Shown here piece by piece: positions 8,567 to 55,882 of a stretch of 64,000 nt of DNA (positions are counted from its first letter, which is position 1; each line of letters starts with the position of its first letter). This DNA comes from a virus, in IMG/VR virus record IMGVR_UViG_3300022226_000003, positions 13,535-77,534 of that record; one strand, given 5' to 3'. A model generated the notes under the pieces. The model had not been told where the DNA came from. It worked only from the letters and a program-made list of their open reading frames with translations, and did not search any database. A program made the translations under genes and the position numbers.

Positions 8567-10135
8567 ATGGCTGTTGCGAACGCTGCTGATAGTACAAAGA
8601 AAGTTGGCGATCCTAATGCAGAATATGAATCCATGCGGGATATTTGGCAAAAATGCAGAGCTATTTGTAGCGGCGAAAGATTCGCAAAAGCCTTGGATAC
8701 ATATTTAGATATACATGGATACAGTAATCTTTTAATCCCATTTTCACCCTCAATGACTGATGCACAATACAAATTCTATAAAGCAGAAGCAGAACTACCC
8801 GGTATTACTGCACAGTTTGCGAGGATGTTAGTGGGAGGTCTTCTCAGAAAAGAGCCCATGTTGGAACTCCCGGATGGTATGAATGAAGATATTCAAAATT
8901 GGATGATGAATAATTTCACTCAAGATAATTCTACGATAACTTCATTCTTAGACGATATTCTTTGGGAAGAGATACAAACAGGCAGAGCGTGGATTTATGT
9001 GGATTATCCAGTAATACCTGATGTAGAAAATGCTACCCAGGAAGAAATCTTCGATTTAGCGCCATTTCCTGTTATGTGGAAAGCTGAAAATATTATAAAT
9101 TGGCGGGTTAGTCCTGACGAGGTAGGGAATGCCATTTTAAGACAGGTTATCATAAAGGGTTCTGTCGCTAGGTATACTGATAATGAATTTCATCCTGAAT
9201 TTATTGAAACTGTGTATGTGCATGAGTTAGATGATACGGGACATTACCAGATAAGAGTTTTTGAAAAGCAATCCATCGAGGCGAAAGTACCTGTTGTGGC
9301 CGGACAAAAATTTGTGGATAATCGAAAAACCACAGATAATTTTGTTTTGGTGAAGACAATTCAAGATATTAAAGCTGCTGGTGAAAGATTGAAATTGATT
9401 CCCGCTTGGCCTTTAAATGGAACTATCTCAGTCTCTGAACCAATATTGTCGCCAATTGTAGATAAAGAAGTTAGCCTATATAATAAGGTTAGCCGCAGGA
9501 ACCATCTGTTATATGGTGCCTCTACATATACACCTATTATCAAATCAGATATGTTAGATGAAGATTTTGACAAGATAGTGGATAGTGGATTAGGCACATG
9601 GATAAAACTTGGAAGAGATGATGATGCTTCTGTTTTAGAAACACCCACAGCTGCATTAAAAGATATGGACAGGGCCATCGCTGCCGCAATTGAGGAAATG
9701 GCCAAATTAGGTATCAGAATGTTGTCTCCTGAAACAGCACAATCTGGTGTTGCTTTGGAACTGAGAAATGCCGCGCAGAATGCTCAATTAGGTTCTTTAA
9801 ATAATAAAGTTAGTGTGACTATCTCGAAAGTCATAGCTTTTATGATTTTTTGGAAGACAGGCGATGAAATTAAAGATTCTGATATTGGTTTTCAACTATC
9901 TGCGGATTTCAACCCAATACCTCTTGGTGCGGATTGGTTAAGACTCGCGACAGAATGGTATGAAAATGGCTTAATACCGCGAAGCATTTGGTTACAAATA
10001 CTTAAACAGAATGATATAATGCCTCCGGATTATGATGATGACGACGGTTTGAAAGAAATAAATAATGATGAAATATTATTAAAGAAAGAGAAACAAAATG
10101 AAGAGTTCTTTGATGATGTGAATACCGAGGCTTAA
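8567..10135 (+). CDS. Portal protein (DUF4055-like)
   Basis: 522 aa; position before the MuF gene; typical motifs (SGVALELR, GLIPRSIWLQILKQ, acidic tail). Confidence 0.85.
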   Translation: MAVANAADSTKKVGDPNAEYESMRDIWQKCRAICSGERFAKALDTYLDIHGYSNLLIPFSPSMTDAQYKFYKAEAELPGITAQFARMLVGGLLRKEPMLELPDGMNEDIQNWMMNNFTQDNSTITSFLDDILWEEIQTGRAWIYVDYPVIPDVENATQEEIFDLAPFPVMWKAENIINWRVSPDEVGNAILRQVIIKGSVARYTDNEFHPEFIETVYVHELDDTGHYQIRVFEKQSIEAKVPVVAGQKFVDNRKTTDNFVLVKTIQDIKAAGERLKLIPAWPLNGTISVSEPILSPIVDKEVSLYNKVSRRNHLLYGASTYTPIIKSDMLDEDFDKIVDSGLGTWIKLGRDDDASVLETPTAALKDMDRAIAAAIEEMAKLGIRMLSPETAQSGVALELRNAAQNAQLGSLNNKVSVTISKVIAFMIFWKTGDEIKDSDIGFQLSADFNPIPLGADWLRLATEWYENGLIPRSIWLQILKQNDIMPPDYDDDDGLKEINNDEILLKKEKQNEEFFDDVNTEA

Positions 10136-10143
10136 GTAAAATA

Positions 10144-13100
10144 ATGGTAGACAATGTAAATACACAAATATATGACGGTCGTCTTAATAGGGCCGCATTA
10201 TTGAGATTGTATGAAAATAATACCATCAGTAAAGTAGATATTGTGATGGATGGACATGTATTCAGACTTGATAAGCTGATTAAGAATTCAAAGATGACTT
10301 CGACTAGCTTCAAGAGTTTTGAAATAAATTTGAATAGGGAACTGAAACGAACTTATAGAGAAGTTTTCTCGGTTTCTAAAAGATCACTTTTGGACTTAGC
10401 TAGCGACCAAGTCTCTTATACGTATCAGAATTTAGAAGCAGGTGTTAGTAAAGTTTGGCGCACAAAAAGACCTCAAAGAAGAATTGCTGAGGAAATTGTC
10501 TTGAAACAACCCTTGCATTCCAATAAGACTCTGGAACAGGGCTGGGTAGGTATAAGCGCGGGTGAGAGAAAACGATTATCGTCAGTTATTCGTAAAGGAA
10601 TTGCTGAAGGAGATACTCCGGAAGTTATTGCCAGGAATGTACGTAAAGGTAACATTCATAAGATAACCAGGAACCAATCTAGAGCTCTTGTAACTACTTC
10701 CATAACAAGTGTTGCAGCACAAGCTGATCATGAAGTCTATGCTGCAAACGGAGACGCCCTGAAAGGTTGGCAGTATGTGGCCGTCTTGGACTCCAGGACC
10801 ACGCCTGTGTGCTCGCATCGTGATGGCCATATTTACCCCATAGGGGACACGAAGCATCTGCCTCCGGCCCACTACCGCTGCAGGTCGACAACGACACCTG
10901 TAGTAAAAAGTTGGGATGATTTAAGTAAATTAGAAGGTGTAAATCAAGTAAGAAAAAGAAATCTTAAAAAATTGAACCCTGCGCAAGTGGCATTTTACGA
11001 TGGATTGACACCTTTAAAAGAATCATATAATTCATGGTTATTAAGACAGCCCACAAATATCCAAGTGAAACATCTAGGTAGTTACCAGAAAGTAGATCTA
11101 TTCAATAACGGTAAGTTATCTGTAGATAAATTCACCGCACCTTCGGGTGCTGAATTGGGAATACGGCAATTGAGACAATTAACTGATTCCGAATATACAG
11201 CTCCCAGTGACACTAAAAGATTTGCACTTGCTAAAGAAAGATTAGATGCAATGCACTTGGGCGCAAGTCGCCCTGAAGATTTTATTGATGATATCAAATT
11301 GACCAATACCCTGAGGGATTATTATGTCTTACAATCTGCTGAATTAGACGGGACATTATCTTTAACAAATTATAGAGGTAATTTAATAGGTACTAAGAGA
11401 CGAACTAAAAATTTGGTCTTAAACAAATTACCACGAGAAGATCAGCTATTGTTCAATCCTATAACTGGTAGATACGAAGATTCTAGATTATTCCAACCTG
11501 CCCCGGCTGTCTTGGAAAATAATTTAAAACTTGTTAATGAAAGTCTTGTATTGAAACAGGCTGATAAGGATTATATCATTAAATTTATAGCCAGTCTAGA
11601 AAGCCGAATGAGTGTTAATGAGAGAGCTGTTGTAGCAGATAACTTAAGAATACTATTTACAAGATACCGCAAAAACCCTGAAGTATGGACTAACTTTAAA
11701 GCAGTTTCTCAAGCTCAAATCAAATTTGATGTAATGAATGTTTCAGACTCTATCGAAACACAATTGAGAAAAGACGCCAATTTGCTTAAGAAATTGAAAC
11801 AAGACAATTACATAGACCCTGTATTAGGTGCTGTGCAATTAGATGATTTATCGAATAATTTTATAAATAATATTTCTAAAAGAAATCGATGGGAAGATAA
11901 AGTAGCACCTAAGTTAGCTAGACAACTAAGAGATATCTTTGACAGAAATATCCCAATAAGATTGCAGAGAAGAATTCCCGATGATAAATTACAACAATTT
12001 TATTTAAGATTTGCACATAGACTTAGCTTAGCAGATAGTCCTGATGTTGATAATTTAGCTGTCTCTTTAGGGCGCGATCTATATAATATGGCTGAACTCA
12101 ATGGTACTAAGCAACAATGGCATACTCTGGGTAAAAAGATAATTGAATCTAACAATAAGTTTTTTAAATTAGAAACATTCGGTGTCCAAAAACGCAGGAT
12201 GAAAAGTAGATTAAGTGGTCAATATTTTGGACCTTACTATGATACTTTTTCGTATAATATAAGAATCACTGATCCCAGGATTCAGGAGTACTCAAGACTT
12301 AATAGAAGTATTGATGTAGGTCTCCGTATAGGTGTCACTGATCCAAAGAATAGATTACTTTTTAGAGAAGGCTATAAAACTTATTTTTATAAAGATAAAT
12401 TAGGTGGCTATGTAGATACCCGAATTCCAATCACTTCTTCATCTGCATTCAGAGATTTTCCTGAAGAATTTATTGATAAAGATATGGTGAGTGCTTTAAA
12501 TTGGGCCGCTAAGTCTGAATTTAAGGTTGATGAAGATTACTATGATTTTGTAAATAAATTATTAAATTTTGCTGATGACCGTGGTCGTGCTCAATACTTC
12601 GATGACTTGAATCAGTATCGACGTTACATAATTTCTCGTGGAGATTCCTATGAAAGATTCAAATCCATGCAATGGTTTAGGGATCGTAATATTGCTTTCT
12701 CTAATCACCCTTTCATTGATTCTAGAGCACGGATCTATGATCGTGGATTTATTAGCCCTCAGTCTGGAGAAACTTTTAGGCCTTTCCTCAATACTTCGTA
12801 TGAGAGAGCTTTAGGCGAAATTGGTTTTAAAAATTTTAATGACCAAATAGGGTCTTTCTTAGGAGGATTGGATGACTTCTTTGAGGGTCGTTTCAACTCG
12901 CTAAGTATCACAGGTAGGCAAAAGATTGCAAATAAGTGGCGTCCAGAGTTAGTTAAAATTGGCAATCACATGATTCGTGGAAAGCCTAATGATATTAGAG
13001 CAATATTGCAATCAGATATTGTGGCTAAGATTGAAGGTGAAGAACTAGGGAAGTTTCTAAGATTTGCAATAGAGACGGCTAAGATTGATAACTTTATGAA

Positions 13101-14763
13101 AGGTGATTATAAAAATCTTTCTAAACTTAATAGTTATAAAACAGCATTAGCGCTAGAGCAAGATGCCTCTTCATCAGGTGCGCAAATAATTGCTTTAACA
13201 ACTAGAAACAAACAATTAGCTGAATTGAGCAATGTTATTCCAACTAACCAGAAGAAAAGATTATACGATGAGATAGCAGCAGCTACCTTCAATGATTCTA
13301 GATTTAGACAGTTAAATTTAAGGTTGGGAATAAATGAGAAAGATTTACGAAAAGCTGCAAAAGCACAAAATATGGTTACATTCTATGGTGCTGGCGATCG
13401 CACAGGTATTCTGAATGTTGAACGAAAACTGGCTTCAGCTTTGGAAAGACAGCCTGGAACATTGGTGGTCAAGGCTTCCCAGAGAGATGAAATCTTGGGT
13501 GAAATTTCCGCCAGAATAGCTAGGTTTGAAAAGTTCGATCCAGAAACTGCAGCTGAGCTTGCAGTATTAAGGACAAATGTTAGAGATATCTTTAATAAGG
13601 GTCTAAATCCTGGCCAAGATATCATGGATGATCTATATTTCTTGTCACCACAAACTAAAGATTTCTTAGAAAAGATGTCTTTGAGTTATGATAAAGTTAT
13701 CACACCGAACGATTTTAAAGAAATTGCTTCAATTATGAGTGAATACCTAGCAGAACAGACTCCTGTACTTAAAACATTCACGAAGTTTTTAGGTCGTCTT
13801 GCGGAAGATTTCCTTGAAAACGCCAGACCATCTAAGAGTGATTTTGATTGGAAAAGTATTTTTAAAGTAAAGCTATTAGGTACACGTAAGGATGGATATA
13901 AATTACCTGACAGAATAGGTGAAATATTGGGAGTAAATACTTCAAAATCTGTGAGTGAATCTTTTCTAAGTAAATTTGGTTTCTGGAAGCCCAATGGGTT
14001 TCTTGATGAATTAATATACGGCACCAGAGATCCTTTAAATAGACGGATCGGTGCCAAGTACTTTAAAATTGATATTGCAAAAATTAAGAAAATTTATGAA
14101 TTAGAAATTTTCAGAGCAAATAAATTACCCAAACGTTGGACAAATGTACCTTGGGTTAATTTTGATAAAAAGACACTAGAACAAAACTTTACATCAACAA
14201 TAGAAACACGGTTATTTTACAGAGATAAAGATGGAAATCCTATTACAAATATTATTCAAATAGATAATAAGAGTGAAGCTACATGGTGGGAACAATTCAT
14301 AAATAATTCTGGCAATATAAATGACATTGCAGATACAGCTAAGGCTAGAACAGCTTATGCTGTAAATGGAACTCATTCTAATGACGCAGTACTCGTCAAG
14401 AGATTTCATATCTGGGGTAGAGAAAATAATGTAAATACAGCGACTGTTCATGATGCTTTCTTCACTAATATTGGTGAGATGTTGGAAGCTAAACAAGCAT
14501 TACGGAATATCTACGCTAAGGCAGCCGAATCGAATGTAATCAAACAAACATTAGATGAAATGCGCGCTAGGGGTTTTCCGAAGGAATTATATGATAAGTA
14601 TTTAAATGAAGCAATTGAGATAGGGCTGATACCGATACCCGGTAAATCTAGGATTGGTGGAAGGCTTCTAACTGATACGGATATATTAACACGCGAGGAT
14701 ATTTTAAGAGATATAGATGAGGTTTTTGAAGACGACCTTAGCTGGTATGGTGTTGGCGGGTAG
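10144..14763 (+). CDS. MuF (SPP1 gp7-like) head protein fused to a T7-like single-subunit RNA polymerase; candidate virion RNAP
   Basis: N-terminal MuF motifs WQYVAVLDSRTTPVC and PPAHYRCRST; C-terminal RNAP motifs DSRARIY, QDASSSGAQ (A), RKAAKAQNMVTFYG (B), NGTHSNDA, VHDAF (C). Confidence 0.9.
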   Translation: MVDNVNTQIYDGRLNRAALLRLYENNTISKVDIVMDGHVFRLDKLIKNSKMTSTSFKSFEINLNRELKRTYREVFSVSKRSLLDLASDQVSYTYQNLEAGVSKVWRTKRPQRRIAEEIVLKQPLHSNKTLEQGWVGISAGERKRLSSVIRKGIAEGDTPEVIARNVRKGNIHKITRNQSRALVTTSITSVAAQADHEVYAANGDALKGWQYVAVLDSRTTPVCSHRDGHIYPIGDTKHLPPAHYRCRSTTTPVVKSWDDLSKLEGVNQVRKRNLKKLNPAQVAFYDGLTPLKESYNSWLLRQPTNIQVKHLGSYQKVDLFNNGKLSVDKFTAPSGAELGIRQLRQLTDSEYTAPSDTKRFALAKERLDAMHLGASRPEDFIDDIKLTNTLRDYYVLQSAELDGTLSLTNYRGNLIGTKRRTKNLVLNKLPREDQLLFNPITGRYEDSRLFQPAPAVLENNLKLVNESLVLKQADKDYIIKFIASLESRMSVNERAVVADNLRILFTRYRKNPEVWTNFKAVSQAQIKFDVMNVSDSIETQLRKDANLLKKLKQDNYIDPVLGAVQLDDLSNNFINNISKRNRWEDKVAPKLARQLRDIFDRNIPIRLQRRIPDDKLQQFYLRFAHRLSLADSPDVDNLAVSLGRDLYNMAELNGTKQQWHTLGKKIIESNNKFFKLETFGVQKRRMKSRLSGQYFGPYYDTFSYNIRITDPRIQEYSRLNRSIDVGLRIGVTDPKNRLLFREGYKTYFYKDKLGGYVDTRIPITSSSAFRDFPEEFIDKDMVSALNWAAKSEFKVDEDYYDFVNKLLNFADDRGRAQYFDDLNQYRRYIISRGDSYERFKSMQWFRDRNIAFSNHPFIDSRARIYDRGFISPQSGETFRPFLNTSYERALGEIGFKNFNDQIGSFLGGLDDFFEGRFNSLSITGRQKIANKWRPELVKIGNHMIRGKPNDIRAILQSDIVAKIEGEELGKFLRFAIETAKIDNFMKGDYKNLSKLNSYKTALALEQDASSSGAQIIALTTRNKQLAELSNVIPTNQKKRLYDEIAAATFNDSRFRQLNLRLGINEKDLRKAAKAQNMVTFYGAGDRTGILNVERKLASALERQPGTLVVKASQRDEILGEISARIARFEKFDPETAAELAVLRTNVRDIFNKGLNPGQDIMDDLYFLSPQTKDFLEKMSLSYDKVITPNDFKEIASIMSEYLAEQTPVLKTFTKFLGRLAEDFLENARPSKSDFDWKSIFKVKLLGTRKDGYKLPDRIGEILGVNTSKSVSESFLSKFGFWKPNGFLDELIYGTRDPLNRRIGAKYFKIDIAKIKKIYELEIFRANKLPKRWTNVPWVNFDKKTLEQNFTSTIETRLFYRDKDGNPITNIIQIDNKSEATWWEQFINNSGNINDIADTAKARTAYAVNGTHSNDAVLVKRFHIWGRENNVNTATVHDAFFTNIGEMLEAKQALRNIYAKAAESNVIKQTLDEMRARGFPKELYDKYLNEAIEIGLIPIPGKSRIGGRLLTDTDILTREDILRDIDEVFEDDLSWYGVGG

Positions 14764-14765
14764 AT

Positions 14766-14783
14766 ACCCCGTTAAATTAACCC
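14766..14783 (+). promoter_or_regulatory. Motif A copy 1 (ACCCCGTTAAATTAACCC), candidate phage RNAP promoter
   Basis: Identical at 55862, one mismatch at 34603; intergenic, upstream of scaffold and capsid. Confidence 0.65.
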
Positions 14784-14866
14784 ATACTATATTTTTTATA
14801 GTATCTATTTTTCTAAAATCATAATACTGTGTATTATGTCTTAAGTTGTACTTGAGGAATAAATTT

Positions 14867-15583
14867 ATGCCCGGCACTGATGAAACAAACACTGGCGATA
14901 GCACTGATGGTAATGGTAGCACCGAAAATGCTGCATCCACCATTACAGTTAAACCTAGTGAATCCAAATCTCCTAATGCGTCTGAAACTTCTGGTGATAG
15001 TGAGTTATCTATCCAAGAACAGATTCAAAAAGGGATTGATGAAGCTTTAAAACCGCTAAAAGAGAAAGTTGATAAAGCCTATTCTGAAAGGGATGAGGCT
15101 CTGGTTAAAATTAAGGAACATGAAGAAAGGTTAAGAAAAGAAGAGTTAGAAAGACTTGAAGCGGAAGGAAAGCATAAAGAAGCCTATGAAGCTAGACTCA
15201 GAGATGAGGAAGCTAAAAGACAAGCTCTTGAAAAACAAAATATTGAACTCACGAGAGATATTGAAGTTAAGAATGAGCTTTCTAAATATGAATTCAGGAA
15301 TCAAAATGCCCGAAATATGGCGTTTCGAGATATCTCTGGAGATCTAGTTAGAAATGATAAAGGCGTTTGGGTTCACAAAGATGGTGACAGTGTAGAAAAT
15401 ATAGTTAAAGCTTACGTGGAAAGTGCAGAAAATTCTTTCTTACTTAAGCCGAAGGTTTCATCAGGTTCAGGCACCGAGATTATCGAAACTAATAACTCCT
15501 CAGGTGGCAACAAATCACTTTTCGACTTACCGCAATCTGAGGTACTTAACATGGCTGCGAAGGGAAATCTTCGCAAAAGATAG
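14867..15583 (+). CDS. Capsid scaffolding protein
   Basis: Acidic N-terminus, coiled coil, SGSG C-terminal region; directly before the capsid gene; GAGGA RBS before ATG 14867. Confidence 0.8.
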   Translation: MPGTDETNTGDSTDGNGSTENAASTITVKPSESKSPNASETSGDSELSIQEQIQKGIDEALKPLKEKVDKAYSERDEALVKIKEHEERLRKEELERLEAEGKHKEAYEARLRDEEAKRQALEKQNIELTRDIEVKNELSKYEFRNQNARNMAFRDISGDLVRNDKGVWVHKDGDSVENIVKAYVESAENSFLLKPKVSSGSGTEIIETNNSSGGNKSLFDLPQSEVLNMAAKGNLRKR

Positions 15584-15595
15584 AGGAAATATTAA

Positions 15596-16798
15596 ATGCC
15601 ATTACGTATTAATGTTGCAGGTGCTACTGAATTTGCGCTACAAGAAGCAATTGGTGCTTATTCAGATGAAGCCTACACCAATGCCAAAAAACTTTCAAGT
15701 ACAGGTATTGTAGGCGGAAACCCACAAATCGATACCAGCTCAGAGACCTATATTGGTCAAATGCGTTGGTTTAAACCCTTAAACCCTACTATCAATACAG
15801 CTTCTCTGACAGTAGCTACTGATGGTGCTTTCACCACTTACGGTTCGGAATACCTGAACTACGTCAAAACTGCTCGTACCCACGGTGCGCAGAAAGTTAA
15901 CCTGCAAACCCTGGTCACTCAGCAAGATGGTCTTGCTAAGATCAGCCGTGATTTCGGTGAAACCAAGGCTCAAGATGAGCACAATGCTATCCTTGCTGTT
16001 CTGAAAGGTGTTGCTATTGCTGAACTTCTGCATGGTACCGGTGATGCCGGTGGTGGTGCTGGTCTTGGTGGACAAGGCTGGGATAATGACCCTACTGATC
16101 CGCTGTATGGCTTCTACGTGGATCTTGGCGCAAATCCGATTGTCACAGCCCCGGCTGCTGCTAATATTGGCGCTCAACGTGCTGCAGGCTTCCTTGATGC
16201 TATCGGTATGGCTTACAAAGATTACGAGCCGGAATTCTTCTACCTGATTACTAGCCCTGAAGTTATGGCTTCTCTGCGTTCTGCTAATCTTGTAGATGAA
16301 ACCAAAGTTGTTGACGGTAATATTGTTTTTGACACTATTTTCCAAGGTAAATTCCGTTTAATTCAAACTCGTGCAACTCAAAGTTTGACTGCTGCAGAAA
16401 TTGACAAATTTGATGCCACGAACGTATCTAATCTGGGTGTTGATTTAGTTGGTCAGAAGACCACTTATCTTGTACAACCCGGTGCATTGGCGATGGAAGC
16501 TCTGCAGATTGCAGAAGATGTTGAATTTGATCGTGATGCTTCTGCTTATGCTGGTGGCGGTACCACTGAAATTTGGTATCGTTGGGGCTACGTCGTTCAT
16601 CCGGGCGGTTACAACTGGACTGGTTCGCAAGATGCTTTCCCGAGTGATGCTCAGTATAAAGAAGTCACGAATGATGGCGGTGCGACTACCGCAACTGTTG
16701 TGGCAATGCCCGCAGCAACTACGGGTTACACTGGTGTTTGGACAAGGAAGGCTAATTCTGTACTCTCACTAGGAATTTTACCTGTATTCCACGCTTAA
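15596..16798 (+). CDS. Major capsid protein
   Basis: 400 aa; position; high-expression codon bias; EFDRD..AGGGTTEIWYRWGYVVHPGG motif. Confidence 0.85.
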   Translation: MPLRINVAGATEFALQEAIGAYSDEAYTNAKKLSSTGIVGGNPQIDTSSETYIGQMRWFKPLNPTINTASLTVATDGAFTTYGSEYLNYVKTARTHGAQKVNLQTLVTQQDGLAKISRDFGETKAQDEHNAILAVLKGVAIAELLHGTGDAGGGAGLGGQGWDNDPTDPLYGFYVDLGANPIVTAPAAANIGAQRAAGFLDAIGMAYKDYEPEFFYLITSPEVMASLRSANLVDETKVVDGNIVFDTIFQGKFRLIQTRATQSLTAAEIDKFDATNVSNLGVDLVGQKTTYLVQPGALAMEALQIAEDVEFDRDASAYAGGGTTEIWYRWGYVVHPGGYNWTGSQDAFPSDAQYKEVTNDGGATTATVVAMPAATTGYTGVWTRKANSVLSLGILPVFHA

Positions 16799-19923: not shown

Positions 19924-22900
19924 ATGACGGTAAGAATACCTGTTGAAGCCGAAACCCGAAGAGCTGAACAAAATTTAGCTAAAGTCACAAACTCTGTGAA
20001 GAGTTTAGAAACTACAGCTAACAATACTGCAAGAAATATACGAAGAGCTTTTATCGGTATTGGTGCTGTAATAACTGCAAATTTCTCAATTAGTTCTATT
20101 GGTAGGATTTCTACCGAATTTACTAATTTACAAAATAGGATTGCAATAGTTACAGGTAGGACAAAAGAGCTAGGTAAAGCGCAAAGAGAGCTACTTCGTA
20201 TATCTGAAAGAACACGTTTAAATCTTAATAGTACCACTGAAACTTTCGGAATACTAGGTAGATCAGGTAGACAGTTTGGTGCTCAAACTAAAGATGTTCT
20301 TACTGTAACTGAAAATATAGCGAAAGCTATTGCTGTCTCTGGGCAATCTGCTGAGTCTGCACGTTCAGCTATTATCCAATTAGGCCAGGGCTTAGGTGCT
20401 GGGACATTAAGGGGCCAAGAGCTTCTGGCTGTTCTGGAACAAGCAACACCTGTCGCTGAAGCTATTGCACGTGGGCTTGATGTTCCACTTGGTAAATTAA
20501 AAGAGCTTGGTGAACAGGGTCAGCTGACTTCTGAGCAAGTATTTGAAGCATTGCTTAGCCAAACCAAACAAATTGATAGAGAATTCCAGAACGTAAACCC
20601 CACAATTGAACAGTCTAAAAACCTGTTGATTGATGGGGTTAAAATTTACGTAGACCAGCTAGACAAAGGGTTGGGATTATCTGCTAGAGTGGGCCAAAAT
20701 CTATTAGAATGGTCTAAATCTGTACGTGCTGCTTCTGAAAATGCATTCGAATTAGGCACAAGAATTGCATTCTCTTTTAATATAATCAAGCGTGATGTAA
20801 AGAATGTAATAAGTCCTTTTGTAAGAATAATAAAAGATTTAGGGATCCAATTCTTAAATATTATACCTAAAGGCTTTTTAACAATTACTTTAGAAGGTCA
20901 AATAAATGAGTCTATACGAGCATTCGATAGATTATTAGGTGGCCCGATTGCTGCATTTAAACGATTTAAATTTATAGATGTTATTCGCATTGAAAGTGAT
21001 GTTGAACTTGCCATACGTAATTTAAGAAGATTAAGTCCAAAGTATTGGGCAGCTGCGGGCTTTGATGTTCCGACAATTAGGCAGCTATTTAGTAGGGATA
21101 ACTTTGAACTATATATTAATGGTTTTAGAAGATTAGCTGATGCTGTTGAGAGCAATACTAAATCCATTGCAAGCACAATTCGTCAATTCGTTATTGATGT
21201 AAGATTTGGTACACTTGCTGCATTGAGATTTTTAGGCTTACTGCCTGATACTCTGCTAGTATTTAAAGTAGGAAATTTAAAGAGTTTTTCTAAAACAATT
21301 ATTGAAATTCTAAGAGGAGTTAGTAATACCTCGTTAGAATTTTTCAGAATTGGGCGGATCATCGATGAGGTATTGTTTCCTAATCTATTAGATGTATTTG
21401 ATGTCCTCGCTGATATAATTCGTAAATTTTATAACTCTTTGAATGAATCCTCAATTCTGAGTTCAGTCAAAGGGCTTTTTGCTAGTTTCGGTCAATTTAT
21501 TATAAATATATTTAAAAATATTTATGATAAAATTATTGGAAATTCATATTGGACAGATACGGTAGAAGGATTACCTAAATTAGCTAAAGAAAATATAGAT
21601 AAAGCTCTTAAGGCATTCAATAATTTTGGCAAGCGGCTCACAGCACTTTTCAAAAATATTGCAAGAGCAGTCTCCGAGAATTGGAAAAATGTTGTTGTTT
21701 TATTCTTAGTAAGTGCTGTTGCTATAGGGCCGTTAATATTAGATGCTATTGGCTATTGGGTAAATTTTGTAAGTAGGGCTGTTGCCTTGGGCCTTGAATC
21801 ACTAGCTGTGGTAATCCTTTCAGGATTGATTAAACTGCCTGATGATTTGCCAGATGTTGTAACTAATGTAATAGAGAAATTAGGCGGGAGTATTGCAACA
21901 GCCTTAATAGTTACAGCTCAAGGTTTTAGGGCATATGGTTTTATTATAAAGAAAGTATTCAATATACTGTCTAATATTTTGTTATTTATAGAAATTCGTA
22001 TAATTCTTGTCCTTAATAAAATAGCGAAGAAGATAGCTTCTTTTATAAAGAGTATCTCATTAGATGATATTAAGGATCTTTTCAAAGAATTACCTGAATT
22101 GGTATCAAATGGTTTATCTAAAGCTACTGATAGTATCAAAAGTTTTGGATTGAAAACAATAGATGTTTTTAGAAATATTTACGACAAAGTTATTGGTAAC
22201 TCATATTGGACAGATACAATAGAGAGTATTGTGAATTCTTCCAATACATTGTGGAATAGAGTTAGTAAGGGCTTACTCATATTTAAAGAAAATGTAACAA
22301 ATATTTTTAGAGATATCTTTAATACCCGCAAAGAAGATCGCCTTAGTAAGATTCTAGATACTGGTCGTGATCTTATTCCAGGGCTTCAGCCGAAAGGTTT
22401 TGCTTCAGGTTTTATTGAAGAAATACAAGAAGTTTTTGCTTATATACAAGAGAAATTTCCTTTTGTTGTTACTGGTGCTTTCATCGGTATAGGTGGGCTT
22501 ATCGCATCTCTGTTATTCCCTGCAGGCAGCATAAAAACAGCAATACTTACAGGTGTAACACTTTCTTTAATAAAAGTTGGAACTATACTAACTGAAAAAT
22601 TGTCAAATAGTGTCTTAGATGCGAGTATTGTCAATCAATTGGCATTAAATGCTGGTGAGGCTGTCGGTGTCTTCTTCGCTTCCATCATAAGAGATTTGCC
22701 TAGCACATTGAGTATAGTATTTGGTGCAATTTCGAATTTCTTTAGAGGTGTCATTGAACAAATACCCTTGCTGGGAACTGCATTAAAAGGCGTATTTAAT
22801 ATTGCAGATGTTGCAGGCCTTGCCGGAGCTTTAGGTTTATTTGGAGTATTCTTATTTGGGAAATACACGATAGGTACAATCAGCAAAATAGCCAAGGCTC

Positions 22901-25900
22901 CTCTAGCCACAATTACCCGTCTATTTGTTGCTTCAAAAGCTGCCATCCTGGGGCAAAGCAGCGGTATCCTTTCTCAGTATGTATTTGGACCGCTAGGCCC
23001 CACACGCTCATTGGCATTAATAGGAATTGCTTTAGATCAATTAGGATTGTTTGAATCACTCTTCAGAGACTCAGCGCTAACTCAGACTGTTATTGAGGGA
23101 GGTCTGCTGTATTTACTGGTCACTGGCGGTAAGGGTGTTTCCACAATCGCAGATTTCATTGGCAAGAAAGTAATATTTCCATTAGGCAGTAAGCTAGCAA
23201 TTCTAGCTGCTAAAACAAAGGTAGGTACAACGCTGTTTGATATCTTCTTTGGTGTCACCGGTAATTTTGGAGATAGAGCAGTTTCTGCAGTCAGGAAAGT
23301 TATTGGTAGCGTAAGCGACAAGATCACCACACTGGGTGCTAAAGGTGTTCAATTTGCCGTGCCTTTCATAAGTAGATTTTTATTTGGCAGAGAACCCGGA
23401 GCTACGAAAGACCGTGCAAAGAATGAGTTAGGATTAGTATTTGATGTAATTAGAGATAGCCTTGCAGGTTTCATTAGACGAGTTCGCCAAACGAATATTG
23501 CAGAGGCGATTTTTAGTTTTGGAAATCCTGCACAAATCTTTGACCCGATTAAAAGAGGTTTAATAAGTTTCTCTACTTTCTTTACAAATACGCTAGGTAA
23601 AATGCGTAAGGCCTCGTTACTTTTTGCAGGTCCTGATGGTATTGTAGGTAAGGCCATCTTCGGCAAAGCCGGTAAAGCTGCGTTAATTACTGGCATCATA
23701 GCTACTCTTGCAATATTCAGTTCGAGTGTAAAAGCTGCAAGTGATGAAGTTCCTTCGGATGGAGAGAAAGGAGGTTTCTTTTCTGGAATCTTTGACAGTC
23801 TCGCAAAGTTGGCAAATGAGAACCCTCTGACAGCAACACTCATACCTGCAACAATTATTGCATTAATTGCTTTTAGACGACAAGTTTTGAGACTTATACT
23901 GAGCGCATTCCCCTCTAATGCATTAAAAGGTTTTGAAACATCTTCTTTGAAAAGTATTAAGAATGTTGGTAAAATCTTTAGGAGTGTTATTGGTGGATTA
24001 GTTGGCACATTCGTCGGTGCTGAGTTAGGTAGAAGAATTGGACCTGAGTTTGAAATTATTGGCGCAATTGCTGGAGCTGCTCTCGGTGAAGGTATCTTTA
24101 GAGGCTTAGGGAGAGCACTGGCCAGCAGTTTTGTTGTCAGAATCGGTGGCGCAATTTTAGCGGCAATTCTGTCAGTAAAAGCTGCAATAGTAGCTGCAAT
24201 AGCCTCGCTTGTTGCTGTCACTGGAGGACTTTTATATGTATTGTTCTTTGGGGAGACTGGTAATTTTTCCAAAGACTTAGATTCAGCAATAAATAAAATC
24301 AAGAACTTCTTTGGTTTCGGCAAAGATGCTTCCAAGGAAATTTCAACAGGAATCTCAGAAGCTGCTGAAGCTTTTGCAAATTTTGAAAGAATACGATTTA
24401 ATTTTTCATTGGAAGGTATTGATCCCGAGCAAATAAGTGAAAGAGAGCAAGGTAAGCTAGATTCCCGAATTGCTGAATTAAACGAAACTATCTTACGAGC
24501 AAGGGATGAGCAAGAAGAGACCGGTAAAATATCAACTGAGACATTAAATGCAATTAATGCTCTAGATAGAGGCTTGACAAGATTTACAGACAAACTTAAA
24601 GAACGTAGTGAAATTGATTTTGAAGGTACTACCAATCTCTTTAAAAAGTTCGAAGAATTCGAGCCAGTAAAATTTGGTGAGAAAATTGTAGTTGGTCTGA
24701 GGCAAAGTTTCCTAGATTTCTCTTTCTTCTTGAAAGAGATTTCTTTAAAGATAAAAGGATTCTTTGGCTCTGAAACTGCTGACAGTGAGTTAGAAGATCT
24801 AACCAAATTAAAGGATACACTTTTCAGTGCTACATTTAGAAATATCAGTCCCGGTGTTAAAGAAATAATAAAATTGCGAGAAGACCTGAACAACACGAAA
24901 GGTCTAGACGCAGATATTGTAGAAAGAATAAATAACGGTACAAAAGACTTATTAAATGTTCTTGAGATAATTCAAAGAGAGTCTAATTTTCTAGGATTTG
25001 AAACACCATTAGAAGAAGATAATAAGTTTCTGGTATTAAGAGAGGTTCTTGTAAAGAGACTCAAAAAGACTTTAGAGGAAGCTCTTGTTGCTCAACAAAG
25101 ATTAGTTGATGTTAAAGAGTTTAGAAACACTCTAACGCAAATCTCTCGTGGATTAAACGAAGTAGGTGTCAGTTTTGATGCGTCAAAATTATTCTTAGAT
25201 GAAACTGATTTTAATACACTCATAGATTTAGCTGGCAATGCAGCGACAATTGCTGCAGAGAGACTCAAAGGTGTTGCAAACACTGACGAATTAACACAGT
25301 TAAATTTAAGATCATTAGATATTCAAAGAGAAGCTGAGAAACTTATACAAAGAGGTGAAACAGCAAGTTTAAAGGTTCAAGCCGCAGCTGCAGTGCTTCT
25401 ATCAAAAATAGGTGAAGATACTTTCTCAGAAAATACAATTGAAAAATTAAGCAAAGACACCGCGAATAAAATAGTTGATTTAGTAGAAAAGATTCAAGGT
25501 AAAGAGCAGCAAATTAAACTAGAGGTAGAATTAGATACTGATCTTGCTAAATTCCAGATACGAAGATTAACCAATGAGGTTGCAAATCTTAGAACCCAGA
25601 TCAGTAACATTGTCTTAGAAGAAGGCGGATTTGATGCTCTAAATGAATTTGCTGATAAATTCGGTATAGATTTTAATAATGCACTAAGGCAATTTGACTT
25701 AAGTTTCATATTATCTGAATTTGATAGATTGCAAAATATTCTGAAAAGAATTAGAGTTGTAAAAGATAAAGATCCTAAGCAGGCAGCTTTACTTAGGAAA
25801 GAATTTGATCTTCTTGTTGCTAATCTAAATATAGCCGATAAAACAATTAATGAAATTCTCTCAGATGTTTCTTCGTTAGGTGTATCTTTTAATTTAGATG

Positions 25901-27549
25901 ATTTCGCAAACATCGATTCAAATACTTTAAATAAATTGAAAGAAGTGTCTGATGAACTTCGCGAAATAAATTTAATACTCTCTCGTCAGGGTAAAGATAT
26001 TAGCGATGATGAAGTCAGAGCAGCGGTTCAGCGTCGTGCCAAGCTGATTGGTACTGTAAATAAGATTGAAATTGACCAGTTATTTAATACTGCAGATAAA
26101 GCTATTAAGAGTTTAGGCGCGGCCGGTGCAACTGTAGATATCATTCCATTCATCAACGATGCAGCTTTAGAAAGATTGTTGGAGAGTGAAAGAACAATTG
26201 CAAGAATAAATCAAAAATTAAAATCTACTGAAAATGCTTCAGTCTACAAACAACTTGCAGAAGACTTGAGTAAGGCCAAGAAAGAGGCAGATAGTCTTTC
26301 CCGAAAGCAGCTGTTTTCAGAGTCATTTGAAAGATTCCAATTAAGTGATTTAGAAAATTTCAGCAAGACAGAGACTGTCGATATAGTACTTAAAGCTTTC
26401 CCCTTATTGCAAGACTTCAAGAGTCTTATTGAAGAGCTACCTTTCCAAGATCTCAGAGCTTTGCTAGCAGATGCTATCAAATTTAATGCTAGGGTGGATC
26501 GAGCAGATCTTGGAGTTGAGACTTTTACTTTAGCTGACAGGACATCTTTCCAAAGAAGAGGTGGAGGTGCGGTTACAGAGCAATTATCCGAAGATATATT
26601 TGGAATTGATACAAGAGGTCTTGCAAATATAGCCCAGCGTAAGATAAAACAAGAAACAATTAATTTAGTATCTAGTGTAAATAAAGTATATATTGATTCT
26701 TTGCTGAGAGATATAATTGCTGAGCAGGATAGATTACGTATCCCCGGTTTGTCAGAAGAATCCAGGATTGCTGCTCAAAACTTAATAAATCAAAAGTCCA
26801 GAGAATTAGATTTAGCAATACAACGAGCCTCACTTGATGTAGGAGAACTGGCATTTGAGGCAGGGCAATCTCTTGTAGATGCATTAGTTAACGGGCTTAA
26901 TGGTGCCTTATACAGAGGCGTCATAGGTATAAAAGAAGAAGGCAAATCTACTTGGACAACTTTCAGAGATGTAATTGTGAACACATTCACTGAAGAATTA
27001 ATTCGTCCTGTTGTAGATGGTATAACAGAAGCTATTAGGAATAGTGGTGCGCTAGATGCACTAGCTGATATTGGTTCTGAACTCTTCAGTACTTTCTTTG
27101 CTGCAATAGCAAGTGCTTTTTCTAAACAAGACAGCTTAGGCGGGACTGCTGGATTAGGTTCTCTGGTAGGATTTTTCTCCGCCGCCGATGGTGGCCCTGT
27201 AGTTGGCCCTGGAACAGGCACTTCTGATAGCATCCCCTCAATGCTATCCAATGGTGAATTTGTGATAAATGCATCAGCTACGAAACGAAATAGAGCACTT
27301 TTAGAAGCGATTAACAATAATAGATTACCAAAATATGCCTCGGGAGGTATTGTTGGAATACCCTCTACTTCTAGTATAAATCCCGCTAAATCTAATTCGC
27401 TAGTCTCTGATAATTCTAAATCGCAGCAGATTTTCAATATCAATGTGACCGGCGATATTAGTCGGCAAACTAAGTCAGAAATATTTAGAATGCTTCCTGA
27501 GATATCTAAAGGAGTTAATTCTTACAACTATGAAAAGAGGTTGGCGTAA
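19924..27549 (+). CDS. Tape measure protein (2541 aa)
   Basis: N-terminal AIIQLGQGLGAGTLRGQEL tape-measure domain; hydrophobic middle; C-terminal GPGTGTSDSIPSMLSNGEFV. Confidence 0.92.
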   Translation: MTVRIPVEAETRRAEQNLAKVTNSVKSLETTANNTARNIRRAFIGIGAVITANFSISSIGRISTEFTNLQNRIAIVTGRTKELGKAQRELLRISERTRLNLNSTTETFGILGRSGRQFGAQTKDVLTVTENIAKAIAVSGQSAESARSAIIQLGQGLGAGTLRGQELLAVLEQATPVAEAIARGLDVPLGKLKELGEQGQLTSEQVFEALLSQTKQIDREFQNVNPTIEQSKNLLIDGVKIYVDQLDKGLGLSARVGQNLLEWSKSVRAASENAFELGTRIAFSFNIIKRDVKNVISPFVRIIKDLGIQFLNIIPKGFLTITLEGQINESIRAFDRLLGGPIAAFKRFKFIDVIRIESDVELAIRNLRRLSPKYWAAAGFDVPTIRQLFSRDNFELYINGFRRLADAVESNTKSIASTIRQFVIDVRFGTLAALRFLGLLPDTLLVFKVGNLKSFSKTIIEILRGVSNTSLEFFRIGRIIDEVLFPNLLDVFDVLADIIRKFYNSLNESSILSSVKGLFASFGQFIINIFKNIYDKIIGNSYWTDTVEGLPKLAKENIDKALKAFNNFGKRLTALFKNIARAVSENWKNVVVLFLVSAVAIGPLILDAIGYWVNFVSRAVALGLESLAVVILSGLIKLPDDLPDVVTNVIEKLGGSIATALIVTAQGFRAYGFIIKKVFNILSNILLFIEIRIILVLNKIAKKIASFIKSISLDDIKDLFKELPELVSNGLSKATDSIKSFGLKTIDVFRNIYDKVIGNSYWTDTIESIVNSSNTLWNRVSKGLLIFKENVTNIFRDIFNTRKEDRLSKILDTGRDLIPGLQPKGFASGFIEEIQEVFAYIQEKFPFVVTGAFIGIGGLIASLLFPAGSIKTAILTGVTLSLIKVGTILTEKLSNSVLDASIVNQLALNAGEAVGVFFASIIRDLPSTLSIVFGAISNFFRGVIEQIPLLGTALKGVFNIADVAGLAGALGLFGVFLFGKYTIGTISKIAKAPLATITRLFVASKAAILGQSSGILSQYVFGPLGPTRSLALIGIALDQLGLFESLFRDSALTQTVIEGGLLYLLVTGGKGVSTIADFIGKKVIFPLGSKLAILAAKTKVGTTLFDIFFGVTGNFGDRAVSAVRKVIGSVSDKITTLGAKGVQFAVPFISRFLFGREPGATKDRAKNELGLVFDVIRDSLAGFIRRVRQTNIAEAIFSFGNPAQIFDPIKRGLISFSTFFTNTLGKMRKASLLFAGPDGIVGKAIFGKAGKAALITGIIATLAIFSSSVKAASDEVPSDGEKGGFFSGIFDSLAKLANENPLTATLIPATIIALIAFRRQVLRLILSAFPSNALKGFETSSLKSIKNVGKIFRSVIGGLVGTFVGAELGRRIGPEFEIIGAIAGAALGEGIFRGLGRALASSFVVRIGGAILAAILSVKAAIVAAIASLVAVTGGLLYVLFFGETGNFSKDLDSAINKIKNFFGFGKDASKEISTGISEAAEAFANFERIRFNFSLEGIDPEQISEREQGKLDSRIAELNETILRARDEQEETGKISTETLNAINALDRGLTRFTDKLKERSEIDFEGTTNLFKKFEEFEPVKFGEKIVVGLRQSFLDFSFFLKEISLKIKGFFGSETADSELEDLTKLKDTLFSATFRNISPGVKEIIKLREDLNNTKGLDADIVERINNGTKDLLNVLEIIQRESNFLGFETPLEEDNKFLVLREVLVKRLKKTLEEALVAQQRLVDVKEFRNTLTQISRGLNEVGVSFDASKLFLDETDFNTLIDLAGNAATIAAERLKGVANTDELTQLNLRSLDIQREAEKLIQRGETASLKVQAAAAVLLSKIGEDTFSENTIEKLSKDTANKIVDLVEKIQGKEQQIKLEVELDTDLAKFQIRRLTNEVANLRTQISNIVLEEGGFDALNEFADKFGIDFNNALRQFDLSFILSEFDRLQNILKRIRVVKDKDPKQAALLRKEFDLLVANLNIADKTINEILSDVSSLGVSFNLDDFANIDSNTLNKLKEVSDELREINLILSRQGKDISDDEVRAAVQRRAKLIGTVNKIEIDQLFNTADKAIKSLGAAGATVDIIPFINDAALERLLESERTIARINQKLKSTENASVYKQLAEDLSKAKKEADSLSRKQLFSESFERFQLSDLENFSKTETVDIVLKAFPLLQDFKSLIEELPFQDLRALLADAIKFNARVDRADLGVETFTLADRTSFQRRGGGAVTEQLSEDIFGIDTRGLANIAQRKIKQETINLVSSVNKVYIDSLLRDIIAEQDRLRIPGLSEESRIAAQNLINQKSRELDLAIQRASLDVGELAFEAGQSLVDALVNGLNGALYRGVIGIKEEGKSTWTTFRDVIVNTFTEELIRPVVDGITEAIRNSGALDALADIGSELFSTFFAAIASAFSKQDSLGGTAGLGSLVGFFSAADGGPVVGPGTGTSDSIPSMLSNGEFVINASATKRNRALLEAINNNRLPKYASGGIVGIPSTSSINPAKSNSLVSDNSKSQQIFNINVTGDISRQTKSEIFRMLPEISKGVNSYNYEKRLA

Positions 27550-34482: not shown

Positions 34483-34623
34483 GCAAAAATTTCGGGGTGA
34501 GCATTATGATGGTGTGCCCGAAAAAATCGCCCCGGAGACGGCAAATGTGGAGCACTCTGTGAGGGGTCAAAAAAACCCCTTTTAAATCAACCACTTACGG
34601 CAACCCCGTTATATTAACCCTTG
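34483..34623 (+). repeat. GC-rich degenerate element ending in motif A copy 2
   Basis: Shares ordered blocks with 55767-55882. Confidence 0.65.
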
Positions 34624-35023: not shown

Positions 35024-35056
35024 ATTGCGGGAAAATAGGTATCTTATATGAAAGAA
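35018..35056 (+). promoter_or_regulatory. Motif B copy 1, candidate early phage promoter
   Basis: 35/39 identical to 35558-35596. Confidence 0.6.
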
Positions 35057-35557: not shown

Positions 35558-35596
35558 AAATAAATTGCGGAAAAAGCAGTATCTTATATGAAAGAA
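35558..35596 (+). promoter_or_regulatory. Motif B copy 2
   Basis: AAATAAATTGCGG-aAAAAgca-GTATCTTATATGAAAGAA. Confidence 0.6.
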
Positions 35597-36618: not shown

Positions 36619-38877
36619 ATGAAAAGAAAATTAATTGAGTCTTTGACACTAAGACTTAAAAAAGAAGTGGCTCCTCAGAACCCTATTAAGTATTTGAAGA
36701 ATTACGACGTTGAGCAATATATTGATATTGTAATTTCTGTTATGTATTTATACACAAGACCAAAGAAAAACAATATTGTTCCTATTTTAGTTACTGAAGT
36801 AATAACTGCAATAGGGCATAGAGTTCGGAGTGAATTGAAACAAAAAAGAGATTCTGCCCTGGCTGCTAAGACCGGGGCCTTTATATTATACTCATTTGAA
36901 CTGCTTGATATTACATATATTAAACTAGCACCGGGACGAAGAGGGCACGCAACTTACATACTAGAGGTAATAAATGATAACGTTATTTGCGAACTTTGGC
37001 AAAATCTAGGCGCTAAAGATATTGAAAAAGTGCCCTCATTGTATCCCTATTTACCCTGGAAAGGTACCAGACATGCCACCGGATTGACTATGGTAAAAAC
37101 GCAAAATAAAGAGGTTCTAGAAAAGATAAAACCAGAGACACACGGTATGCTATTCGATTGTTTAAATAGAGCTCAACAAGTAGGTTGGAGAATAAATGAT
37201 GAAATATATAAATTACATCTATGGGCTTTACGAAATAAAACAGACGCTTTTGCGGATATTTGGGAGCAACATGACCCAGAAGCTAAAGCCACAAAGCTCA
37301 GAGAGGCAAGAGCTGTTGGAGATATTGCTCGTAAATTTATTGGGAAAACCTTCTACCATCTCTATTACTACGATTTCAGAGGTCGTAAGTACGCTGCAAC
37401 AGCATATCTGCATGAGCAGGGGGCTGACTTGGCACGTGGACTTCTGTTACGAGACGATAAAAAAGCAATTGGTGTTAAAGGTTATTTCTGGCTCTTAGTG
37501 AGTATTGCTTCAAATTGGGCAGGAGAAGCCGGTAGAGAAGATAGTTTAAAGACTGATAAAATACCTTTACAAGAACGTTACCAGTGGTCTTTAGATAATG
37601 AAGAGATTTTATTATCATATGCAAAAGCTCCTAAAGTTAATCAAGGTTGGATGCAAGCGGATAAACCATGGCAATTCCTCGCTGGCTGTTTTGAATTAGA
37701 AAAATTTAGAGATTATCAATTAAAATTAGAAGAAAAATTAAACGGTTTGCATTGCAGTGAGGAAATGTGGTATGGATATGAATCTCATCTTGAGTGTTTT
37801 ATTGACGGGAGTAATAATGGGAGTCAGCATCTTGCTGCGCTCACCCGAGACGAAATTACAGCGCCTCATGTTAATCTTGTACCTCTGGACTACCCCGGCG
37901 ATTTATACAATTATGTGGCTGAGAATGTATGGGAAGCCCTAGGTAAGCAGGTTGAGATGTTTTCTATTGATGAAATAAAAGACTGTGAAGAGTTTATTGA
38001 CAATCTCGTCAAAATAAAGAAAAAGATAAACAAAGCACCCACAAGTGAAATCAAAGCAAAATACATAAATGAAATTCAAGAATTAAAATACAATAACCTT
38101 GAACTGATGACAATGGCTGCACCAATATATTGGTTCAGAATTACGGATGCAAAAGAACGAAGGAAAATAGTTAAAAGAAATACAATGACGTTGCCTTATG
38201 GAGGAACACCCTACGGGCTGGGCCAGCAGATAATCGATGATGCTAAAAAACATGGTATTGAGCAATTGTTATATATGGAACATAAATGGGGTGCTTTCTT
38301 GGGTAGAGAAATATTTGAGAACTGTAAAATATCTCTTACGCGACTTATGAAGCTCTTACTCATATTTGAAGCTGCTGGAAGGCAAGCTGAATTGGAAGGT
38401 AGATTTCTGAGTTGGACGGTCCCTTTAACAAACTTCCCTGTTGTTCAACATTACACTGAAGGGATCGTAAAGCGGGTGTATGTCCAATATGGACCACCCT
38501 CTGGACAAAGGACTACTACGGGATATTTCAAAAATACTCTGCAACTACACGTATGTTTCCTTGAAGAAACGGTGCCTTCAAAAAGAAAGCAATCGCAAGG
38601 TGCTTCGCCTAATGCTATCCACAGCCTGGATGCGGCGCATTTGACATTAACGGTATGTAAAGCAAATTTTCCTGTGACTACTGTCCATGATTCATTCGGA
38701 TGCTTACTCGCGGATATGCCTGATTTATTCAGGATTGTTAGAGAAACCTTTGTGGAATTACACGAAGTAAATCCCCTAAATTCAATTATGAAGGATATAC
38801 AAGGAGATATCTCAGAATTGGAAATGGGTAACTTAGATATTAATCTTATATTAGAATCGGAGTATTGTTTTTCATGA
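36619..38877 (+). CDS. T7-like single-subunit RNA polymerase (752 aa)
   Basis: DFRGRKY, IDGSNNGSQH (A), RKIVKRNTMTLPYG (B), PNAIHSLDA, VHDSF (C); C-terminal YCFS resembles T7 FAFA. Confidence 0.95.
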   Translation: MKRKLIESLTLRLKKEVAPQNPIKYLKNYDVEQYIDIVISVMYLYTRPKKNNIVPILVTEVITAIGHRVRSELKQKRDSALAAKTGAFILYSFELLDITYIKLAPGRRGHATYILEVINDNVICELWQNLGAKDIEKVPSLYPYLPWKGTRHATGLTMVKTQNKEVLEKIKPETHGMLFDCLNRAQQVGWRINDEIYKLHLWALRNKTDAFADIWEQHDPEAKATKLREARAVGDIARKFIGKTFYHLYYYDFRGRKYAATAYLHEQGADLARGLLLRDDKKAIGVKGYFWLLVSIASNWAGEAGREDSLKTDKIPLQERYQWSLDNEEILLSYAKAPKVNQGWMQADKPWQFLAGCFELEKFRDYQLKLEEKLNGLHCSEEMWYGYESHLECFIDGSNNGSQHLAALTRDEITAPHVNLVPLDYPGDLYNYVAENVWEALGKQVEMFSIDEIKDCEEFIDNLVKIKKKINKAPTSEIKAKYINEIQELKYNNLELMTMAAPIYWFRITDAKERRKIVKRNTMTLPYGGTPYGLGQQIIDDAKKHGIEQLLYMEHKWGAFLGREIFENCKISLTRLMKLLLIFEAAGRQAELEGRFLSWTVPLTNFPVVQHYTEGIVKRVYVQYGPPSGQRTTTGYFKNTLQLHVCFLEETVPSKRKQSQGASPNAIHSLDAAHLTLTVCKANFPVTTVHDSFGCLLADMPDLFRIVRETFVELHEVNPLNSIMKDIQGDISELEMGNLDINLILESEYCFS

Positions 38878-55766: not shown

Positions 55767-55882
55767 GCAAAAATTTCAAGTCGCCAGGGGCCAGACAGGG
55801 GCTAAAAAACGTCCCGCAGACGGCCACCGGGGAGCACAGAGAGTACCCCTTTCTGCATAGAACCCCGTTAAATTAACCCTTG
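55767..55882 (+). promoter_or_regulatory. GC-rich element plus motif A copy 3
   Basis: AACCCCGTTAAATTAACCCTTG at 55861-55882. Confidence 0.65.

Follow-up and report, generated by a model that had tools for sequence, protein, structure and literature searches.

What is a T7-type RNA polymerase (RNAP) doing on the end of a phage head protein, and could it be there to travel into the next cell with the DNA? The question is raised by a single gene in IMG/VR virus record IMGVR_UViG_3300022226_000003, a 77,534-bp record from sediment metagenomes that is rated 100% complete, and of which we analysed positions 13535-77534 as one window of 64,000 nucleotides (nt); positions below are those of the window unless 'genome' stands before them. 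At 10144-14763, on the + strand and between the portal and scaffold genes, one uninterrupted open reading frame (ORF) of 1539 amino acids (aa) occupies the slot of a MuF-type minor head protein and joins such a protein to a polymerase, much as an initial annotation of the sequence had described. We think that the product is a polymerase delivered from the capsid, which would transcribe the early operon before a second, free-standing phage polymerase takes over, and we put the probability of this at roughly 0.6. The features that can be read from the sequence fit a virion-delivered polymerase and lend the idea partial support.

A head protein and a polymerase in one chain

The MuF half of the protein can be recognised in several ways. 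The Pfam family Phage_Mu_F (PF04233) scores 47.7 bits at residues 146-250, above its cut-off of 29.6, and this is the sole match to that family in the 77.5-kb genome; phrog_241 (head morphogenesis) covers residues 49-351 (2.5e-66) and phrog_115 (minor head protein) covers residues 49-559 (9e-23), and because this last match reaches so far we extend the module to about residue 560. The Cys and His motifs that had been claimed for it are indeed present, as C223, H243 and C246, and they are conserved along with P240, P241, R247 and S248; in 25 diverse homologues P240, P241, H243, C246, R247 and S248 are invariant. An AlphaFold2 (AF2) model of residues 1-620 has a predicted local distance difference test score (pLDDT) of 84.9, with confidence dropping at about residues 541-560, between the two modules. 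Foldseek returned no PDB fold match for this N-terminal model at E <= 0.001, and a predicted complex of the portal with MuF residues 1-360 scored 0.00, which weighs neither for nor against docking. A MuF polymorphic toxin as described by Jamet et al. (2017) would combine a C-terminal toxin domain with an immunity gene, and what is found here is a polymerase at the C-terminus and a scaffold gene next door.

The polymerase half is recognisable along its whole length, with an N-terminal domain, thumb, palm, fingers, a specificity-loop region and a conserved C-terminal WYGVG. Pfam RNA_pol (PF00940) matches at 45.3 bits (cut-off 22), and the AF2 model of residues 561-1539 has a pLDDT of 84.9 and a predicted template modelling score (pTM) of 0.84. 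In VIA-align the model superposes on T7 RNAP with Z 29.5 and a root-mean-square deviation of 3.4 over 527 residues (model 9-978, T7 42-883), on the yeast and human mitochondrial polymerases with Z about 26-28, and on the N4 mini virion RNA polymerase (mini-vRNAP) with Z 20.2. A profile built on 44 family members matches T7 RNAP at 2.7e-26 with the specificity-loop region aligned and N4 RNAPII weakly; N4 vRNAP was not among its matches at E <= 1. The polymerase motifs A, B and C (called catalytic motifs here, to keep them apart from two DNA motifs described below) are in place as the initial annotation had said, with both catalytic Asp residues, D1007 and D1437, and the residues of catalytic motif B. 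R863, D1007, K1073, Y1081, D1414 and D1437 are invariant in the 25 homologues, down to 20% identity, and D1007, D1437, K1073 and Y1081 are so across alignments of 25-44 homologues. Two departures from T7 noticed at the outset also bear measurement: from catalytic motif B to catalytic motif C there are 356 aa, as against 173 in T7 (Y639 to D812), and 102 aa lie beyond catalytic motif C, as against 71. Despite the extra length the C-termini of model and T7 RNAP superpose, the family ending being WYGVG. The polymerase is complete and under purifying selection, and it is apparently an active enzyme. Separately, residues 678-806 (window 12175-12561) form a beta-rich insert in the polymerase N-terminal domain that has no T7 RNAP counterpart and resembles the C-terminal portion of PH1932, a putative archaeal transcription regulator (PDB 1uly, E 1.7e-5).

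The most prosaic explanation, an assembly chimera or a decaying pseudogene, can be regarded as refuted. Three sediment runs, at depths of 12-23, each hold window 9500-15500 in a single contig with zero differences (the runs may stem from the source campaign), and there are hundreds of homologous fusions with invariant catalytic residues. Indeed, at least 468 stretches in IMG/VR code for the fusion. Homologues of the polymerase part form 431 clusters of proteins at 90% identity, and both Pfam domains are present in nearly all of those that are full length; an exhaustive search gave 160 representatives at 50% identity, the complete ones being 1260-2070 aa long with the polymerase C-terminal. Among 25 diverse members at 20-63% identity, Phage_Mu_F is detected in 24 and RNA_pol in 21. 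The covalent link between MuF and polymerase is preserved even where family members share no more than about 20% identity.

This conservation bears directly on the thought that the enzyme is nothing more than a late polymerase of the cytoplasm whose gene happened to join the neighbouring head gene; its halves would act each on its own, or come apart by cleavage or through an internal start, and no delivery would take place. Such a history would sit well with the position of the gene among late genes and with the dip in model confidence between the modules, and two representatives of about 800 aa, P0146 and P0156, whose initial Met falls close to the beginning of the polymerase, might lack the fusion or be split by an intron. 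However, the link persists in 24 of 25 members, the shorter homologues open to inspection are 5'-truncated fragments, no prohead protease is seen between the portal and capsid genes, and a second late polymerase would duplicate the free one; we consider this explanation unlikely.

A search of 50,697 phage records gave only four with a match across 80% or more of the fusion. EBPR siphovirus 1 has a homologue at 57% identity, and the Naomviridae roseophages DSS3_VP1 (records NC_055826 and MN602266) and DSS3_PM1 have homologues at 30% identity and 90% coverage. In EBPR siphovirus 1 (JF412302, our locus L001) the gene is apparently split at 9186-10040 and annotated as three genes (gp47, an HNH endonuclease and gp49), and the reading frame resumes within the codons of catalytic motif B (KAQNMV / TFYGAG). 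The interruption begins with a full-length match to a group I intron (40.5 bits, E 1e-8, below the Rfam gathering score), and we read the split as an HNH-bearing group I intron lodged in the catalytic motif B codons. Homing introns typically sit in genes with conserved catalytic sites, and homing into the most conserved catalytic site would fit a functional enzyme.

Elsewhere in the family there is a hot spot for inserts just before catalytic motif A (after position 989), where P0015, P0045, P0055, P0077 and P0116 carry unrelated segments of 70-160 aa; P0083 has an insert after position 1105, and the distant members P0158, P0168 and P0183 have C-terminal extensions of about 300 aa. Pfam scans of five of these inserts and extensions (P0015, P0045, P0055, P0116 and P0183) gave no match. 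Two of the hot-spot inserts carry a DG[YL]HR motif reminiscent of ParB/Srx. Inteins were considered as the origin of the 70-230-aa inserts and set aside, since intein ends are lacking and there is no Pfam match.

A second polymerase and two directional motifs

The genome encodes another polymerase, free-standing and in the early/replication region. It matches T7 RNAP in the PDB at 7.7e-41 and its C-terminal end is T7-like; because it aligns with the fused enzyme at only 27% identity over 79 aa, it is not a recent duplicate. Both polymerases are present in eight of nine near-complete relatives, and in DSS3_VP1 also. The ninth relative (G006) has a contig that ends exactly at the expected locus of the free polymerase. 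For this reason a link between a missing free polymerase and a missing DNA motif A in G006 was dropped: the contig breaks there and absence is not demonstrated. The free polymerase is far more variable than the fused one, being 744-769 aa long in some genomes and 926-1013 aa in others (G003, G004, G008 and G009 show this), and in G009 it lies in two ORFs (514 and 257 aa), recalling the two-subunit N4 RNAPII.

Two short DNA motifs accompany this pair of enzymes. DNA motif A, CCCGTTAAATTAACCC (ACCCCGTTAAATTAACCC), has four copies in the genome, all oriented with the genes and all at the starts of gene blocks. One copy lies directly after the fusion gene, as it does in most of 49 related loci, and across ten genomes the motif occurs in 3-5 copies per genome in eight, 31 of 32 copies on the coding strand, the reversed control giving one match. 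It is a candidate promoter of a phage polymerase (the free one) or some other directional signal. DNA motif B has the consensus TTGCGG-AAA-N4-GTATCTTATATGA, or in short form YGCG-N10-YATCTTATATG, and is found in 2-4 copies in all ten genomes, on the coding strand only and with zero control matches. Wherever a genome has the free polymerase gene, a copy of the motif precedes that gene at a distance of 1-4 kb. Neither motif has sigma-70-like spacing, and sigma-70-like sites are not enriched over shuffled sequence (28 against 21.6 +/- 4.4, and 26 against 27.1 +/- 5.6, the early region included). A TTGCAT-N17-TATAAT string after 34620 was weighed as a sigma-70 promoter and rejected, its -35 hexamer matching at only three of six positions.

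With two polymerases and two conserved directional motifs, one of them ahead of the second polymerase gene, a relay is the simplest reading. We imagine that the fusion, a late product, joins the procapsid when its MuF part docks to the portal, like SPP1 gp7, and that it would leave the capsid together with the DNA. In the new cell it would transcribe the early operon from DNA motif B with no need of the host polymerase, and the genes so transcribed would include that of the free polymerase, which would then read DNA motif A ahead of the structural operons, the one with the fusion gene itself among them. Delivery from the capsid is favoured because a polymerase made late would have little use in the current cycle beside the free one. 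The weakest step of the proposal is the assignment of motifs to polymerases, which we infer.

A different use in the producing cell also deserves thought, in which a portal-tethered polymerase, through transcription or as a paused enzyme, recruits or positions DNA for packaging, and injection is irrelevant. The gene order is in sympathy with it. From genome 626 to the fusion stop codon runs a + strand ORF block of about 27.7 kb with no intergenic gap above 50 nt, and therefore the fusion gene probably closes a long structural operon that includes the large terminase and the portal. MuF is itself a portal-associated protein, and a directional motif, DNA motif A, follows the fusion gene immediately. 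The idea also echoes the pausing of T7 RNAP at the concatemer junction, which is reported to act in DNA maturation. Yet the free polymerase already serves the current cycle, neither DNA motif has any link to a packaging site, and cargo fused to MuF is generally taken to be an injected effector (PMC5512222), so that we hold a packaging role to be improbable.

Nor do we set much store by the notion that the enzyme is indeed injected, and serves mainly to make replication primers or open an origin and not to express early genes. A fold of the T7 and mitochondrial type is compatible with it, since polymerases of both kinds can prime, and N4 vRNAP is also required for N4 replication. The genome has its own primase-helicase and DNA polymerase, however, and the conserved copies of DNA motif B precede coding operons, all of which makes this a very unlikely answer.

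Several considerations weigh against capsid delivery and the relay. The presence of the fusion in the virion, its ejection and its activity are all things that we infer, no RNA run was among the sequencing runs listed for the gene, and a folded protein of 175 kDa would need to traverse a siphovirus tail tube. The enzyme appears nearer to the T7 and mitochondrial polymerases than to N4 vRNAP, so that its lineage offers no hint of a virion role. DNA motif B could be read by the RNA polymerase of the host, and a copy of DNA motif A also precedes the early region, which blurs the division between early and late. Finally, a scan of the genome for TGT-loop hairpins did not find the N4-type hairpin promoter class ahead of early genes.

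Features of the locus and its neighbourhood

Table 1. Genes, protein modules, catalytic residues and DNA signals of the locus (window positions; 'genome' marks positions in the full record)
Feature	Position	Strand	Remarks
Large terminase gene	genome 2478-3836	+	Inside the same gap-free block as the fusion gene
Portal protein gene	8567..10135	+	phrog_145, 5.8e-61; the fusion gene starts 8 nt after its end
MuF::RNA polymerase fusion gene (1539 aa, P0001)	10144..14763	+	Single ATG-to-stop ORF; both Pfam domains above curated cut-offs
MuF-type minor head module, residues 1 to ~560	10144..11823	+	Pfam core 146-250
T7-like single-subunit RNA polymerase, complete, residues 561-1539	11824..14760	+	AF2 model, family profile
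R863			DxRGR-like motif; opposite T7 DxRGR motif
D1007, catalytic motif A Asp	codon 13162..13164	+	Aligned to T7 D537
Catalytic motif B core, K1073-Y1081	13360..13386	+	Aligned to T7 K631-Y639
R1069, K1073, Y1081, G1082 (catalytic motif B)			Opposite T7 R627, K631, Y639, G640
H1411, D1414 (HSxD motif)			Opposite T7 H784, D787
H1436, D1437 (catalytic motif C)	D1437 codon 14452..14454	+	Opposite T7 H811, D812
DNA motif A copy	genome 329-347		Before the window
DNA motif A copy (ACCCCGTTAAATTAACCC)	14766..14784	+	3 nt after the fusion stop, ahead of the scaffold-capsid-tail operon
Hairpin, 8-bp stem and TGT loop	14820..14838	+	7 nt (14839-14845) before the scaffold start codon
Scaffold-like gene	14846-15583	+	Next gene after the fusion
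Major head protein gene	15596-16798	+	After the scaffold gene; followed by a head-tail adaptor gene
DNA motif A copy whose 16-nt core has one substitution	34603..34620	+	Start of the early/replication region
DNA motif B copy 1 (TGCG-N10-TATCTTATATG)	35026..35050	+	Precedes the free polymerase gene; candidate early promoter
DNA motif B copy 2	35566..35590	+	In tandem with copy 1, after small early ORFs
Free T7-like RNA polymerase (752 aa, P0002)	36619-38877	+	phrog_414, 1.2e-107; early/replication region
Primase-helicase gene	46256-47905		The genome also encodes its own DNA polymerase
DNA motif A copy	55862..55879	+	Ahead of a small-gene block

All sizeable genes of the genome lie on the + strand. 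Because the ends of the record overlap by 40 bp, a circular assembly is suggested. In 39 related loci the ORF immediately before the fusion is a portal ORF. Further along, amid tail genes, the tape measure protein (window 19924-27549) is 2541 aa long, which implies an unusually long tail.

The hairpin in Table 1 is the sole intergenic TGT-loop hairpin in the genome, and a survey of the 200 nt downstream of the fusion gene (loci L011-L090) found TGT-loop hairpins at the same position in 40 of 49 related loci, 74 hairpins with 24 different innermost 4-nt stems. Standing just before the scaffold ribosome-binding site, it may be a stabiliser of the mRNA 5' end, a processing site or an operator.

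Significance, and comparison with known systems

Is any of this new? To our knowledge, virion-carried polymerases occur only in N4-like phages, phiKZ/AR9-like jumbo phages and crAss-like phages, and each of these enzymes is unusual. We found no published description of a MuF-polymerase fusion in a search that left subscription-only papers outside its reach, and the Naomviridae papers mention neither polymerase nor MuF. Within the searchable literature, then, the fusion of cargo to MuF is a known theme, and a polymerase as the cargo appears to be undescribed.

If capsid delivery is right, an ordinary T7-type enzyme would become a virion polymerase simply by fusion to a head protein that docks at the portal, and hundreds of environmental siphoviruses, with cultured marine representatives, would be using one. 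In its widest form, the claim is that the injected virion polymerase was invented a second time, independently, by docking T7-type polymerases through MuF, with a self-contained relay of two polymerases and two promoters (DNA motif B, then DNA motif A) that frees early infection from the host RNA polymerase in a large and mostly uncultured siphovirus clade, including the abundant marine Naomviridae; to this we would give even odds. It would bear on how phages escape host transcription control and defence, on how a 175-kDa enzyme crosses a long tail, and on early transcription in the Naomviridae independently of their modified DNA, and it would offer compact polymerases that tolerate N-terminal fusion, along with candidate promoters (DNA motifs A and B), for use in orthogonal expression. 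With the cultured isolates DSS3_VP1 and DSS3_PM1 to hand, the idea of delivery is directly testable.

It is with these Naomviridae that the sediment phage shares most of its plan. DSS3_VP1 has the same order of portal, MuF::RNAP, scaffold, capsid, tape measure and free RNAP, continuing with nucleotide kinase, DNA polymerase, exonuclease, primase-helicase and ribonucleotide reductase (RNR). The homologue there is 1463 aa long and is annotated publicly just as 'head morphogenesis' or 'minor head protein-like'. The Naomviridae differ in being phages with uracil-containing DNA (dU-DNA), and the two families that serve dU-DNA synthesis in DSS3_VP1, PF00383 (the deaminase Dcd) and PF12917 (the HD phosphatase Dtm), are absent from the whole sediment genome; because they are absent despite the Naomviridae-like gene order, the fused polymerase is not tied to uracil DNA.

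T7 RNAP itself resembles the fused enzyme over the whole length of the fold, including the N-terminal domain, and the two can be aligned at the Asp pair, the Lys and Tyr of catalytic motif B, the HSxD motif and the specificity-loop region. T7 RNAP, however, is a protein on its own, its gene is transcribed early by the host polymerase, and it does not enter the virion, whereas the fused enzyme has some 180 extra residues between catalytic motifs B and C and ends in WYGVG instead of FAFA. In phiKZ/AR9-like jumbo phages and in crAss-like phages a late-made polymerase is packaged for the next infection, and the jumbo phages add a non-virion polymerase; these enzymes, being of the multisubunit or two-barrel kind, have no kinship with the T7 family, and they are not fused to MuF.

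On the side of the head protein, MuF proteins belong to the head and, as in the MuF polymorphic toxins and polyvalent proteins, often bear an enzymatic cargo for which injection has been proposed, and the premise that MuF/SPP1 gp7 proteins often carry C-terminal cargo domains is borne out by the literature (PMC5512222, PMC9503650, PMC5576092). The fusion shares with them an N-terminal Phage_Mu_F domain, a portal-adjacent gene, one copy per phage and a C-terminal enzymatic domain. The cargoes described are small toxins and effectors (ADP-ribosyltransferases (ART), RNases, RelA/SpoT, Nudix, phosphoribosyltransferases (PRTase)), and in temperate phages an immunity gene often accompanies them, whereas here the cargo is a 980-aa polymerase and a scaffold gene follows. 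Polymerase cargo is not mentioned in the MuF surveys (PMC5576092, PMC5512222, PMC9503650).

Functionally, the closest system is N4 vRNAP, gp50, of the Schitoviridae, although architecture and lineage differ. In N4 an injected T7-type polymerase works alongside a second phage polymerase (references within PMC5512222), and in both phages there is a single-subunit T7-family polymerase among the late genes, with capsid carriage and injection presumed in ours, and the early region expresses a second T7-like polymerase of the phage's own. In the account of Iyer et al. 2017 (PMC5512222), polymerases of the N4 type always come joined to metallopeptidase (MPTase) domains and not to MuF, which agrees with the view taken at the outset that the N4 virion enzyme lacks the architecture of the fusion. 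gp50 is about 3,500 aa long with its polymerase central, whereas the fusion has 1539 aa and consists of MuF and polymerase only; N4 is a podovirus that uses DNA-hairpin promoters, whereas ours is a siphovirus in which no such class was found ahead of the early genes. The fold of the fused enzyme, lastly, is nearer to T7 (Z 29.5) and the mitochondrial polymerases (about 28) than to N4 mini-vRNAP (20.2).

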